A DNA stretch of 63,996 nucleotides, counting the filler, from Reclinomonas americana ATCC 50394 (Eukaryota), in assembly GCA_048213135.1 (NCBI GenBank). It is 7 parts of 4 records of this genome, joined end to end, with 100 filler letters (N's around TTAATTAATTAA, not from the genome) between each part and the next. Parts side by side here need not be neighbours in the genome. Positions count along the whole stretch, not along the records: positions 62,906 to 63,996 come from PS015772.1; 6 more parts are not named here. The stretch is one strand, 5' to 3'. A model generated the notes under the pieces. It made no database searches, was not told the DNA's origin, and saw nothing but the letters and a program-made list of their open reading frames with translations. Positions 1-63,996 of this stretch are shown in pieces (position 1 is the stretch's first letter; every line of letters starts with the position of its first letter). Both the position numbers and the translations under genes were made by a program.

Positions 1-49
1 AGTGCTACATGCAATCACCCCGAGTCCGTTTTCATCGGCGTGCTCTCAC

Positions 50-3669
<3,620 letters not shown>

Positions 3670-44408: not shown

Positions 44409-47265
44409 ATGGCGCGCTCTCTTCTCCTCGCACTCCTCCTCCTCCTCCTCTTTGTGGCATGCCTCGTCACAGTCAAGGCGGCGGTCGATGAGCTGGAGGA
44501 GGCGCGTCGCCATCGTGTGTATGAAGTTGAGGTGGAGGCGACTGGGCTCTTCAGGCACAGAAACCACCGCACTCCAACGACGATCCGTGTGTCGTGGAAG
44601 GACCCAACCATCAAAACTATCGAGCAAGCAGGTGCGCGTGTGTGTGTGTTGAGTCTGCTGGTTTCGCGTGTGTATGAGGGGAGAGATAGAGAGAGAGAGA
44701 NNNNNNNNNNNNNNNNNNNNNNNNNNNNNNNNNNNNNNNNNNNNNNNNNNNNNNNNNNNNNNNNNNNNNNNNNNNNNNNNNNNNNNNNNNNNNNNNNNNN
44801 NNNNNNNNNNNNNNNNNNNNNNNNNNNNNNNNNNNNNNNNNNNNNNNNNNNNNNNNNNNNNNNNNNNNNNNNNNNNNNNNNNNNNNNNNNNNNNNNNNNN
44901 NNNNNNNNNNNNNNNNNNNNNNNNNNNNNNNNNNNNNNNNNNNNNNNNNNNNNNNNNNNNNNNNNNNNNNNNNNNNNNNNNNNNNNNNNNNNNNNNNNNN
45001 NNNNNNNNNNNNNNNNNNNNNNNNNNNNNNNNNNNNNNNNNNNNNNNNNNNNNNNNNNNNNNNNNNNNNNNNNNNNNNNNNNNNNNNNNNNNNNNNNNNN
45101 NNNNNNNNNNNNNNNNNNNNNNNNNNNNNNNNNNNNNNNNNNNNNNNNNNNNNNNNNNNNNNNNNNNNNNNNNNNNNNNNNNNNNNNNNNNNNNNNNNNN
45201 NNNNNNNNNNNNNNNNNNNNNNNNNNNNNNNNNNNNNNNNNNNNNNNNNNNNNNNNNNNNNNNNNNACAGCTTGCGCGTTCCGAGTAATTCGCCGTCTCG
45301 TTCCTTCCGCTTCTGTACCATTGCTCTGCTTGTCTGCTTTCTCTCGGTTTTCTGCTTCTTTTCTCTCTCTCTCTCTCGCCGCGCAGGGCATTGAGATCGA
45401 TGGGAGTTCGTCACAGTCCGAGAAATGCATTCTTGTTCACCGTCTCACTGCCTATCCTTTCTGCTCAGACACTGGTTTCGCCGTCTCAGCAGCGGCGCGT
45501 GGGTCTGCTCGTGCGCGGTCGTCTGCACTTGTTGTCGATCGCCGCTGACGGCTCAGATGTGGACCTTGTCGGTGAGTTTGCCCATGCACTCGTCCACTCG
45601 ATCGTTGTGCTGAAGTGTGAGTCCAGCCGAGGATTTCGCAATAACCGAACAGCTGGAGAGTGTGTTCATTCCGGCCATGGCGATGGCCATGCGTCTGCAG
45701 TTGGAGCGCAACATGCCAGAGGCGAGTATAGGTGCCTCCCCATGGCCAACCCTTTCACTGTCGCTCACTGCATTCTTTGATGCTTGCGCAGCCGACACCA
45801 GTGGAGTCTCGCTTGTCACGGCTGGAGTACCTGCGCAAGGGATTCCGCATTCCAGTGCCCGCCTTTGACACCACATTCCTCGACTTCCCTTATGCTATTC
45901 CCGGGTGGGAGTTACCAAGTATGCTCACTTTTCTCTTACATTTACCTATTCTGTATGTCGCCCTCAAACCCTCTTTCCCTCTCGCTCTCCCTTAGGTCCG
46001 ACGCTGCCAGACGAGTTCCCCTCGTTCAGCATGCGAGACAACAACAACATTACGACTTCTCATCAACCTATTATTGTCCAAGCCGCCACGGAGCGCTGCA
46101 TGGAGGAACCAGAGGTGCGTGCAGATAGTCAACTTTGGAATTCCGCAAGTTTTCTTACCTCTCCGCGTGCATCGCGAAGCTCATCGCCTGGTACTTTGTG
46201 GTGCGTCACTCACTCGCAAGAAGAGCTCGCCGTGTGTCACTGTCTCCTCACCCTTCTACGTAGCCACCCTCCACCGTGCACGAGCGCTTCTTGCCAGCAC
46301 CGTTGCCGCCACCGCGTGAATGGGCCGGCGATGTTGATGGACTCGTATCACTTCGCTTGCCTGGACCCTTCGAGCGCATGCGCTATCGCCACCCGCAGCC
46401 GGCTCCAGCACCAGTGCAGCGCGGCTTCATCATGGACTCGGGTCGCGGAGAGCCGCCGCTTGTCGAGTGCACCGTGTGCGGATCGCGATTTGTCCGCGCC
46501 CATCCACCGCCACCACTCGGTCCGCGAGTGCGCATTCTCATTGCGGCGTGGTGCGGTGATGTGGAACGCCAGGCGCGTGATAATGTGCGCCAGACGTGGA
46601 TGCGCTACAGCAACGTGTACCACGCACAGCTCAACCCGCACGGCTCACTACAAGTGATCTTTGTGATGGGCCGTCCTCGCTCTGCCGCCACACGACAGGC
46701 GCTGCACGAGGAGTACTTGCAGTACGGAGACATGGCGCTCCTGGACATCCGCGAGAACATTTACGACGGAAAGAACCTGGAGTGGTCAAGAATGGCGCAC
46801 GACACGTACGGGCGCAGCCAGACGCTGCGGTACGTTGGGCGAGTGGACGTGGACGTGTTTTTCCGTCCTCTGAAGATGGAGCGCGAGTTGCGACGGCTTC
46901 CACGGGAGCGTCTGCTGTGGGGCCATACCATCTTTGGGTATCGTGGACGACGGATGTTCGAGTATCCTCTCGGGCCGGCGTACTTTGTCAGCTGGGATCT
47001 GGTGGTGTTCCTGCGCCGCACGACTTCAATATCGGCAGTCGACCGGATGGGAAGCGAAGACTGCGGCTTCACGCACTACTTTGTCAAGTCCGACCTGCCG
47101 GTGCACTTGGCCTCCGACGTGCGATTCCACGATCTGCAGGGCCACCGCCGTGGCCTGTTTGTCGAACCAACGACCGACAAGTCCATCAACATTCATCGTG
47201 TGCGCGACCTGGCGCAGCTGCAAATGTTTATGCAGCGCTTCCCTGACGGGTTGTACGCTGTTTAG
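44409..47265 (+). CDS. GT31-like (Galactosyl_T) glycosyltransferase, tandem copy 1 (exon 2 probably in gap)
   Basis: Signal peptide MARSLLLALLLLLLFVACL. Catalytic exon: RDNVRQTW, IFVMGRP, LHEEYLQYGDMALLDIRENIYDGK, YVGRVDVDVF (DxD), YPLGPAYFVSWDLV, GSEDCG. Confidence 0.8.
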
Positions 47266-47387
47266 CCGTACGTAGTGAATTTGTTATGTGTTCGCTGAGG
47301 GCAGTGATAATCGAGAACCACCACGCAGCGGCAGCCGACTCGAACTTCGAGATATGTCCTTGCGCACTCTTTTCAGGACTTTGTCGC

Positions 47388-61573: not shown

Positions 61574-62805
61574 ATGGCTGACGCTGAGATCGGCCAGCGC
61601 CTCGCCTCACGACTCGGGCACAACGGTTCGTACCACCCCGCACACCCACCCACACCAGAGCAAGCATGCATCTGCAACAGTAGACGTCCAGAAAACAGTG
61701 TGAAAGTTGTTGATGCACATTCACATCAACGACCTGCACCACGCACACTTTTTTCCTCCCCCGCCGCCTGCTCATCTCTGTGACACAACAGAGCGCGAGG
61801 AACGCGATGCAGCAGTGAAAGCGCTCTTCCAGATGTTCCAAAAGGTCGACTCGATGACCGACGCCGAGATGCTGGTGATCTGGAAGGGCCTCTTCTATGG
61901 TGAGTCCTCTCCTTCTCTCTTTCTCTCTCTCTCGCCTCTTGTCACCCTCTTTCTCTCTCTCTCTCTCTCCATCAGTTTCCTGCTCTCTCTTTTGTTTTCC
62001 TATCGCTTCACTTCTCTAAGACTTCCTCTCTTTGTCTCTCCTCCCTCACTCCCTCCCCCCCCCTCCCTCACCTGCCCTCAGCCATGTGGTTCTCCGACGG
62101 AGTCCCCGTCCAACGCGAGCTCGCCCAGCGCATGGCCCAGCTGATGCATGCATTCCCGACACTGGAGCTGACCATGCGCTTCGCGGAGACATTTATGCTG
62201 ACCATGCAACGCGAGTGGCCGCGACTGGACCACCTGCGTCTGGACAAGTACTACCACCTGGTGGAGTGTGTGGTGCGGGAGCTCTTGTCGCTAGTGTGCA
62301 CGGCCGAGGAGACCTTCCGCGAGCAGCAAGATGGTGATGATGACGAGGGAGATCGTCAGCTGAACCCGGTGGCTGTCGATGTGGCCAATCTGTTGTACGA
62401 GCACGTGTTCCGCGCCACGGCAGAGCCGCTGCGTAGTGACGTGGAGGATGCTGCGTTGGTGGTGCATGGCGACGAGGAGGCGGAGGAAGCCGTCGTCGAT
62501 GACGATGAGGATGAGGATGAGGAATACGACGATGAAGTTGAGGAGGAGGAGGAAGAAGAGCAGCCAAAGAAGAAGAATAAGAACAAGGGCAAGAAGGGCA
62601 AAAAGGGCAAGCGTGGCACCTCTGACGAAGGTTTGTTGCTGCAGCATCCACTTGCTCCTCCACCACCGCCATCTCACTGTGTGTGCTCAGAGGCCGAGCA
62701 AGGCTTGAGTCGCGCCCAGATGCGTCAGCTGACGAAGCAACGCATTGCCGCCAAGCGCAGACAACGCAAAGTGGTGAGCGACCTTCGTGATCGATACCCG
62801 CGATT
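61574..62805 (+). CDS. RRP1: Ribosomal RNA processing protein 1 (Nop52/RRP1), 3' end in linker
   Basis: RLASRLGHNE..RDAAVKAL..MLVIWKGLFYAMWFSDGVPVQRELA..FMLTMQREWPRLDHLRLDKYYHLV is the Nop52 signature. Confidence 0.92.
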
Positions 62806-63001
62806 NNNNNNNNNNNNNNNNNNNNNNNNNNNNNNNNNNNNNNNNNNNNTTAATTAATTAANNNNNNNNNNNNNNNNNNNNNNNNNNNNNNNNNNNNNNN
62901 NNNNNCGTGTGCCTTGGCAGTCTCAGGAGAGAGAGAGAGAGGGAGTGCGTGTGTTGTGATAGTGTCTGGAAACTGAGGTATGCCCTTCGCGTGTGTCTCA
63001 C

Positions 63002-63219
63002 CTGCTGGAGGCAATCACTTCCTCACGACCACCTCCCGTCGTGTGTAACCTCAGCGTGTCATCCGACACAACGAGGCGGGCCTCGGCGCCCAACAAAATC
63101 GGTCCTCCATTGCTGAACAATGCCAGTGGGCTCGAAATCATCATCATATTCACCACCACCACTCCCATCACCAACAACGCCACCAGTGCGCGTGATAATG
63201 AACGAGAAGACGCGCGCAT
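63002..63219 (-). CDS. First exon of a probable secreted or membrane protein (remainder lost at the linker)
   Basis: MRASSRSLSRALVALLVMGVVVV is a signal/anchor-like N-terminus; the exon ends at an AG|GTGAG donor. Confidence 0.5.
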
Positions 63220-63904
63220 GAGAGAAAGTACAACAAAAAGACAACAGAAAAGAAAAAGGTGTGTGTGTGTGTGTCTGCGTCACGGAGAAAGAATCAGACA
63301 AAACAGGGTTTGCGGTGCGCGCCTCTCGCGCTCTCTGTTTTCCTCTGCGGTGCTCAACACACGCAGAGAGAGTGAATTAAATAGTACAACGCCCAAAGTG
63401 CGTGTGGTGTGGCGACAGAGAGTGAGGCAAGGTGCGCACTCGGTTGCGAGAAAAAATTACGTGTTGAATTTGCAAGTGACCAATTGGCCAATTCAGATTT
63501 CGACGAAAAGCCACTTATCGGGGGCGACCTGCAGCAGCGCTGGGTGAGACCAACCAGTACGTGGCGAGTAACACGGCAGTTCATTCTACGTGAGGCGATG
63601 CCGTGCTGCGCAGTCGCAAAGAAAGGTGCGTAGCATACTACTCCGGGGGTAGCGTAGATCGCCCTGGTTGCACATCCGATTGCGATGTACAACCACGGAG
63701 GCGAGGCACCGCTACGTGAGGCCACACGTATGGCTGGCGGGTTCATGCTCTCACAATGAAGGACGCTGTGTGCTCTCAGTTGTATGACACCCGAGAGCTC
63801 CGCTACGATAATGCGAAAACCTGGGTTGAGAGAGACCGCACCGGGACGCTGGCGTTGGACCCGCCGTGAGACCTGCGGTACCCCCCGGGAGGGTGGAAGA
63901 AGCC

Positions 63905-63967
63905 GGCGGTCGTTCCCGACCTCCCCGTGGTCTCGTTGGAAACAGGTTTGCCTGGCTAACAGGGAAC
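63905..63967 (+). ncRNA. Candidate HDV-like self-cleaving ribozyme core
   Basis: P2 GUUCCC (63912-17) / GGGAAC (63962-67); P3 ACC/GGU closing L3 UCCCCGU; P1 3' strand CUCGUU; P1.1 GG; P4 CAGG-UUUG-CCUG; J4/2 GCUAA. The P1 5' strand is ambiguous. Confidence 0.5.
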
Positions 63968-63996
63968 AAATGGCGCTCAGTGGCCGGCTTCTTTTT

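Follow-up and report, generated by a model that had tools for sequence, protein, structure and literature searches.

The stretch 63912-63967 of the window, a term used here for the entire DNA analysed (63,996 nt), carries a complete and ordered set of motifs of an HDV-like ribozyme core, and the balance of the evidence tilts towards a non-functional chance look-alike of such a core. Within the core, the resemblance to HDV ribozymes is real. Stem P1, on the other hand, is not beyond chance in either of its two versions, adjacent or distal, and the stem that would hold the candidate cut site is unconvincing. The motif itself is real, while a ribozyme is not established.

Layout and chance occurrence of the HDV-like core

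In the published descriptors of HDV-like ribozymes, L3 has the consensus U-Y-C-N-C-G-N, and the cytosine of J4/2 is followed by N-R-A; the original descriptor papers are reportedly those of Webb et al. 2009 and Ruminski et al. 2011. All motifs of the candidate core were read directly on the + strand of positions 63905-63996. The 5' strand of P2, GUUCCCG, occupies 63912-63918 (UUCCCG at 63913-63918, extendable to G63912). Its GUUCCC pairs with GGGAAC at 63962-63967, G63918 can pair with C63960 if A63961 is bulged, and UUCCCG is the consensus of drz-agam-1 at model positions 16-21. P3, L3 and P3' follow at 63919-63931 (ACC at 63919-63921, UCCCCGU at 63922-63928, and GGU at 63929-63931); this segment aligns with ACCUCCuCGuGGU of drz-agam-1 at a posterior of ~1, and the 13-mer occurs a single time in the 64-kb window. 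P1' is the 6-nt CUCGUU at 63932-63937, after which GG at 63938-63939 can form P1.1 with C63923/C63924, and AAA separates this GG from P4. The P4 hairpin CAGG-UUUG-CCUG (63943-63954) was present in the MFE and centroid folds alike. J4/2, GCUAA at 63955-63959, consists of G63955 followed by C63956-U-A-A, in which C63956 is the candidate catalytic cytosine; it aligns with CuaA of drz-agam-1, and both remaining HDV models have GGCUAA at the aligned place. P2' is CAGGGAAC at 63960-63967, with A63961 bulged. P2, P3, P4, and a two-pair P1.1 are thus arranged in the HDV-like order P2-P3-L3-P3'-P1'-P1.1-P4-J4/2-P2', and both L3 UCCCCGU and C63956-U-A-A fit the consensus given above and align with the three Rfam HDV models.

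Downstream of the core, an ATG at 63970 opens nine codons (MALSGRLLF; 63970-63996, +) in a frame that stays open to the end of the window. It stands in the context gaacaaATGg, with A at -3 and G at +4; 27 nt of window lie beyond this point, and the ribozyme-like fold stops 2-3 nt upstream of it. The sequence-only reading had claimed P2, P3, L3 UCCCCGU, P1', GG, P4, GCUAA with C63956, and P2' in this order, a 6-nt P1' and a bulge in P2 as imperfections, and the open ATG frame at 63970; each of these elements was found where it had been placed.

No Rfam family reached its gathering score anywhere in the window. A permissive search (E <= 10) of positions 63885-63985 (101 nt) returned three matches, all of HDV type, all on the + strand, and all sub-threshold: drz-agam-1 (RF01787) at 20.7 bits (gathering score 37), HDV-F-prausnitzii at 18.0 bits (44), and HDV_ribozyme at 13.9 bits (50). 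The candidate therefore reached the curated score of none of these Rfam HDV-type families. The match to drz-agam-1 had an E of 0.02 on the 101-nt piece and of 0.2 on 1 kb, where it was the top match and where the value refers to a search space of ~2 kb and 4227 families; rescaled by our own arithmetic to one family over the whole window, the E becomes ~0.003. The alignment was local (model positions 16-79) and left the P1 5' strand and J1/2 unmatched, and identity to the drz-agam-1 consensus was 21/23 over P2-P3-L3-P3' and 10/10 over J4/2-P2'. An RNase P/MRP origin, which had been named earlier as the competing assignment, was also looked for, and the Rfam search gave no RNase P/MRP match.

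A P1-less descriptor, which was written after the candidate had been seen and is biased towards it, found one site in the window when both strands were searched. This site, at 63919, has a 6-bp P2, a 3-bp P3, a 4-bp P4, and GG after a 6-nt P1'. With P2 set to at least 5 bp, at least one site occurred in 14 of 300 dinucleotide-shuffled windows; with P2 of at least 6 bp the count was 13 of 600, and with a compact P4 region 6 of 600. The reversed window contained no site, and a stricter descriptor that does not allow the A63961 bulge gave no match in the window. The descriptor check that the sequence-only reading had proposed was thus borne out in part: the core fits a relaxed, P1-less descriptor, whereas the canonical 6-7 bp P1 next to P2 is absent. 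The core is moderately beyond chance. The case shows that an HDV core alone arises in 1-5% of shuffled 64-kb windows, which is unusual for one window but not across many windows, and P1, copy number, and downstream ORFs need to be checked before any ribozyme is called. When the Rfam E-values are taken into account as well, the chance rate of such a core is put at ~1-2% per window; by our own estimate, the prior for a true HDV-like ribozyme in a random 64-kb window of a fungus/protist-like genome is of the same order as this chance rate, or lower.

Compared with shuffled sequences, the plain MFE fold of 63895-63975 showed no extra stability (z -0.14). Together, P2, P3, and P4, the nested portion of the HDV fold, were calculated at -13.6 kcal/mol, against -21.6 kcal/mol for the competing MFE fold of 63905-63967, in which a GGUCG/CGACC hairpin uses the 5' strands of P2 and P3 while P1' and GG pair with J4/2 and P2'. 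As an argument against the HDV fold these predicted energies are weak, because MFE prediction also misfolds the clean HDV-like fold of a metagenomic locus (L004, described below).

Candidate stems for P1

In the available part of one source, P1 of HDV-like ribozymes is usually 6-7 bp long and its first nucleotide marks the cleavage site (PMC4908430). Mismatches in P1 are described as uncommon in the part of a second source at hand, where they are postulated to explain the missing in vitro cleavage of the horseshoe-crab, sunflower, and Anopheles funestus ribozymes (PMC3774820).

Directly upstream of P2, the putative 5' strand of P1 is GGCGG at 63905-63909 (+), of which G63905 would be the +1 nucleotide. 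Against U63933-U63937 it forms five pairs (G·U, G·U, C-G, G-C, and G·U), three of which are G·U, and no pair is possible between U63910 and C63932. The calculated energy of this adjacent P1, taken as a closed helix, was 0.0 kcal/mol. No 6-bp P1 adjoins P2, and the canonical 6-7 bp P1 is absent there. In 3000 shuffles of the upstream 912 nt, an adjacent P1 of at least 5 bp was found in 23.6%, and one of at least 6 bp in 5.8%.

A full 6-bp P1 is available at a distance. GGCGAG at 63700-63705 (+) forms six pairs with CUCGUU, two of them G·U, and would imply a long J1/2; GGCGAG occurs also at 63563 and likewise makes six pairs. However, the region 63000-63912 contains nine six-mers that pair fully with CUCGUU (those at 63563 and 63700 and seven more), and the distal GGCGAG sites therefore carry no weight by themselves. 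Two nucleotides past the GGCGAG at 63700, ACCGCU (63708-63713) can pair with GGCGGU (63905-63910), which ends 1 nt before P2. This would be a candidate "P1.2" pinch helix of 6 bp enclosing ~190 nt, within a J1/2 of ~206 nt. A distal P1 combined with a 6-bp closing helix arose in 12.6% of the 3000 shuffles, and the helix was absent from the MFE fold of 63706-63912. The sequence-only reading had left the 5' strand of P1 uncertain between GGCGG at 63905 and GGCGAG at 63700 or 63563; these sequences are indeed present, but none of the resulting stems stands out from chance.

Two kinds of small repeat were seen in the same upstream region. The motif GUGAGRC occurs four times in 63545-63875 on the + strand (63545, 63591, 63715, and 63866), and CUACGUGAGGC occurs twice (63588 and 63712), each time 6-19 nt past a GGCGAG. 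An upstream tandem repeat was considered and rejected, as none was detected and a three-segment alignment had a mean identity of 50% with no real register.

Comparison with known ribozymes and metagenomic loci

The HDV-like ribozyme family drz-agam-1 (RF01787), originally reported from Anopheles gambiae, supplied the best-scoring Rfam model. The candidate and drz-agam-1 have in common the P2/P3/L3/P3' string UUCCCG-ACC-UCCnCGU-GGU and the J4/2-P2' string CUAACAGGGA. They differ in P1', which has 6 nt rather than 7 in the candidate, in the P1 5' strand and J1/2, which found no counterpart in the model, and in P4, which is much shorter in the candidate (an unaligned block of 20 against 31 nt).

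[quoted passage not shown] Only through such an R2-like distant P1 does the candidate obtain a full 6-bp stem. R2 sits in 28S rDNA and, in the same portion, its P1 is often built from 28S sequence (PMC3774820). In contrast, the candidate is flanked by protein genes, and the window has no rRNA match and no visible R2 ORF. Large HDV-like ribozymes of the drz-Agam-2 type are described, in the accessible text of another source, as having a J1/2 helix "P1.2" that pinches P1 and P2 together and activates the ribozyme (PMC4908430). The pairing of 63708-63713 with 63905-63910 would join P1 (63700-63705) with P2 as P1.2 does; unlike P1.2, the candidate pinch helix is non-significant against shuffles and missing from the MFE fold.

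The Pr77/L1TcRz ribozyme of the trypanosomatid L1Tc/ingi/SIDER elements, as given in the part of the source that could be consulted, shares with the candidate the P3-L3-P3' string ACCUCnnCGUGGU and a J4/2 of C-N-A-A type (PMC4035085). By-eye comparison with the same part of the source found P1 (CCCUGAU/AUCAGGG type), P4, and the P1.1 region to be different, and the candidate does not show the Pr77 signature of a CCCUG-type P1, a long P4, and a trypanosomatid genome (PMC4035085). The idea of a trypanosomatid SIDER/Pr77 element, which had been prompted by the (CT)n/(GA)n-rich composition together with ACCUCnnCGUGGU, was rejected because the window has a Nop52 gene with a GT-AG intron and a Cyc8-like gene closest to chytrid and amoebozoan proteins, and because P1 and P4 are unlike those of Pr77.

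A metagenome scan for the core with CCCG before P3 gave no matches, and neither did the viral scan for the core; a looser core pattern found four metagenomic loci (L001-L004). Two of these, L002 and L003, were rejected as relatives, since they lack P2 and are chance matches. L001 reaches the gathering cut-off of drz-agam-1 at 37.5 bits (519-577, -), with hardly any P4; its best P1 partner by reading, GGCUGGC, lies ~35 nt upstream of P2. An ATG 3 nt past the L001 ribozyme opens just 14 codons, and L001 was for that reason rejected as support for a coupling between ribozyme and ATG. The fold of L004 (1378-1457, +) was recognised by eye, with a 7-bp P1 (GGAGCUC/GAGUUCU), a 4-nt J1/2, a 7-bp P2, and a 6-bp P4, and its P2 has the same G...C/bulged-A junction as the candidate. 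It scored 24.3 bits with drz-agam-1; because a fold as clean as that of L004 scores only this much, a true ribozyme can fall below the threshold. In both L001 and L004, P1' is 7 nt long and P1 is full, whereas the candidate shows neither feature, and the Rfam consensus P1' is likewise 7 nt. As a separate observation, the ribozyme-like fold of L004 lies ~220 nt downstream of an ORF (707-1156, +) for an adenovirus-type protease (Peptidase_C5, E 5e-5), which suggests that L004 may be a Polinton/Maverick-like or virus-like element.

Genomic setting and competing readings

A Nop52 gene is located at 61713-62857 (+; Pfam E 2e-21) and is split by a 182-nt GT-AG intron (61901-62082); the intron is nearly pure CT-rich sequence. 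As a protein query, Nop52 gave two weak matches. Several exon-like pieces at 35-2493 (-) make up a Cyc8/Ssn6-type TPR corepressor gene, and its TPR fragment was 86-93% identical to chytrid fungal proteins over 38% of the query and 91% identical to a protein from an amoebozoan transcriptome. These protein matches are the sole clue to the host lineage; the host is read as an intron-bearing eukaryote of fungus/amoeba-like character, not a trypanosomatid. The protein collection searched with Nop52 and with a galactosyltransferase paralogue contained no protein of this genome. The window also contains genes for a PB1-kinase, a gelsolin-repeat protein, and a Kelch protein. In the 1.1 kb upstream of the candidate itself, none of the frames bore a coding signature. 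A gene on the minus strand across the site (ORF 63354-63995, 213 codons) was rejected, as it has no Pfam match and no coding bias; ORFs of such length are common in this G+C-rich window, in which 159 have at least 140 codons. Plus-strand coding through the site was also rejected, given that a 71-codon in-frame ORF from 63784 had no homologue among 1.84 billion representatives and no codon bias. Of the 159 ORFs of at least 140 codons, 135 were scanned and all lacked reverse transcriptase (RT) and endonuclease (EN) domains, and there was no second copy of 63400-63996 within the 64-kb window.

The reading that we prefer by a little, a non-functional chance look-alike, places the core in the non-coding sequence that separates the Nop52 gene from the start codon that follows, and holds that 63912-63967 most likely does not self-cleave. 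P2, P3, L3, the P1.1 GG, P4, and the J4/2 cytosine are present, while a credible P1, the substrate helix that positions the scissile phosphate, would be missing, and without a stable P1 the fold would have nothing to cut. The RNA is predicted to adopt the nested alternative, with P1' and GG paired to J4/2 and P2' and the 5' strands of P2 and P3 in their own hairpin, and the ATG at 63970 would be the start of an ordinary gene. A chance look-alike is favoured because no Rfam family was matched at gathering score and the alignment omits the P1 5' strand and J1/2, because the best adjacent P1 has 5 bp at ~0 kcal/mol and the P1 options are such as chance gives, and because the competing fold is the more stable by prediction. 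It is favoured further by the single copy in the window, by the lack of an RT/EN domain in the 135 ORFs, and by the fact that such a P1-less core is not rare for a scan across many windows. Several points count against it: the core is complete and ordered, the permissive Rfam matches were of HDV type throughout, a well-placed ATG follows the fold after 2-3 nt, and L004 shows that a clean fold can both score low and be misfolded by MFE. The distant P1 and pinch architecture of R2 and related ribozymes, as far as the available parts of the sources describe it, also matches GGCGAG 63700 with its 6-bp helix (PMC3774820, PMC4908430). Altogether, what is seen of P1 speaks mildly against a real ribozyme, and the position of the ATG mildly for one.

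That a transcript unit, most likely a non-LTR retroelement with its ORF from 63970, begins with an active, self-cleaving ribozyme of HDV-like type seems doubtful. The P1 of this ribozyme would use either the distal GGCGAG at 63700-63705, closed by 63708-63713/63905-63910, or the weak adjacent GGCGG at 63905-63909. The RNA would fold as a nested double pseudoknot and cut 5' of the first P1 nucleotide, releasing an RNA with a 5'-OH and with the ribozyme at its start; C63956 in J4/2 would presumably be the general acid with a bound Mg2+, by analogy with C75 of HDV. This is supported by the complete core, by the uniformly HDV-type Rfam matches, by the low chance rate of a P1-less core per window (1-5%), and by an ATG in good context 2-3 nt past P2' with no coding signal in the upstream 1 kb. 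It agrees, moreover, with what the accessible parts of the sources report: a long J1/2 and distal P1 for R2 (PMC3774820), activation of large HDV-like ribozymes by a closing pinch helix, and a natural range of P1 lengths that includes 6 bp (PMC4908430). However, P1 has no statistical support in either version, the MFE fold of the putative J1/2 lacks the closing helix, every score is sub-threshold, the window holds no second copy and no RT/EN domain, the metagenome scan found no relatives with CCCG before P3, and the nine residues MALSGRLLF are uninformative on RT or ORF1. If the ribozyme is active, the 5' end of a retroelement is more likely than a domesticated leader. Very little credence is given to a working ribozyme within the 5' leader of a normal cellular gene of an early-diverging, fungus-like or amoeba-like eukaryote, with P1 ~200 nt upstream clamped by the J1/2 pinch helix; were it true, self-cleavage would leave the mRNA uncapped, with a 5'-OH, and translation would begin immediately after the ribozyme, so that the retrotransposon trick would have been domesticated outside animals. 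If cleavage took place in either setting, the HDV-like ribozymes would gain a member from an intron-bearing, fungus/amoeba-like lineage that is poorly sampled, and its position before a start codon would bear on how HDV-like ribozymes prime the translation of uncapped RNAs. It is improbable that the sequence is what decay has left of a formerly active HDV-like ribozyme, stemming for instance from an old retroelement insertion or from a ribozyme in a 5' UTR; the core would have remained recognisable while P1 was lost by point changes or by a 1-nt deletion in P1'. Such decay would fit the 6-nt P1' set against 7 nt in L001, L004, and the Rfam consensus; GGCGGU, which falls one pairing position (U63910/C63932) short of the full 6-bp match of GGCGAG with CUCGUU; and a core score similar to that of the true but divergent L004. 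Yet decay of the core would be expected too, whereas L3, J4/2, and P2 are intact, the window has no element remnants such as RT fragments, and a relic is indistinguishable from chance without related copies. The remaining probability, beyond the look-alike, the active ribozyme, and the relic, is shared by other explanations.

Runs of (CT)n, (GA)n, and (CA)n abound in the window as a whole, which also contains 20 N gaps, and these features indicate a rough draft assembly. A query with one of its Galactosyl_T paralogues (PF01762, E 6e-12) found no homologue of similar length in a collection of 5.8 billion proteins. The five paralogous genes, each encoding ~295 aa, form a tandem array at 45500-59411 (+) with a period of 2.7-3.5 kb, in which copies 1-3 share 93-96% DNA identity, with a drop to 65-83% for copies 4 and 5.
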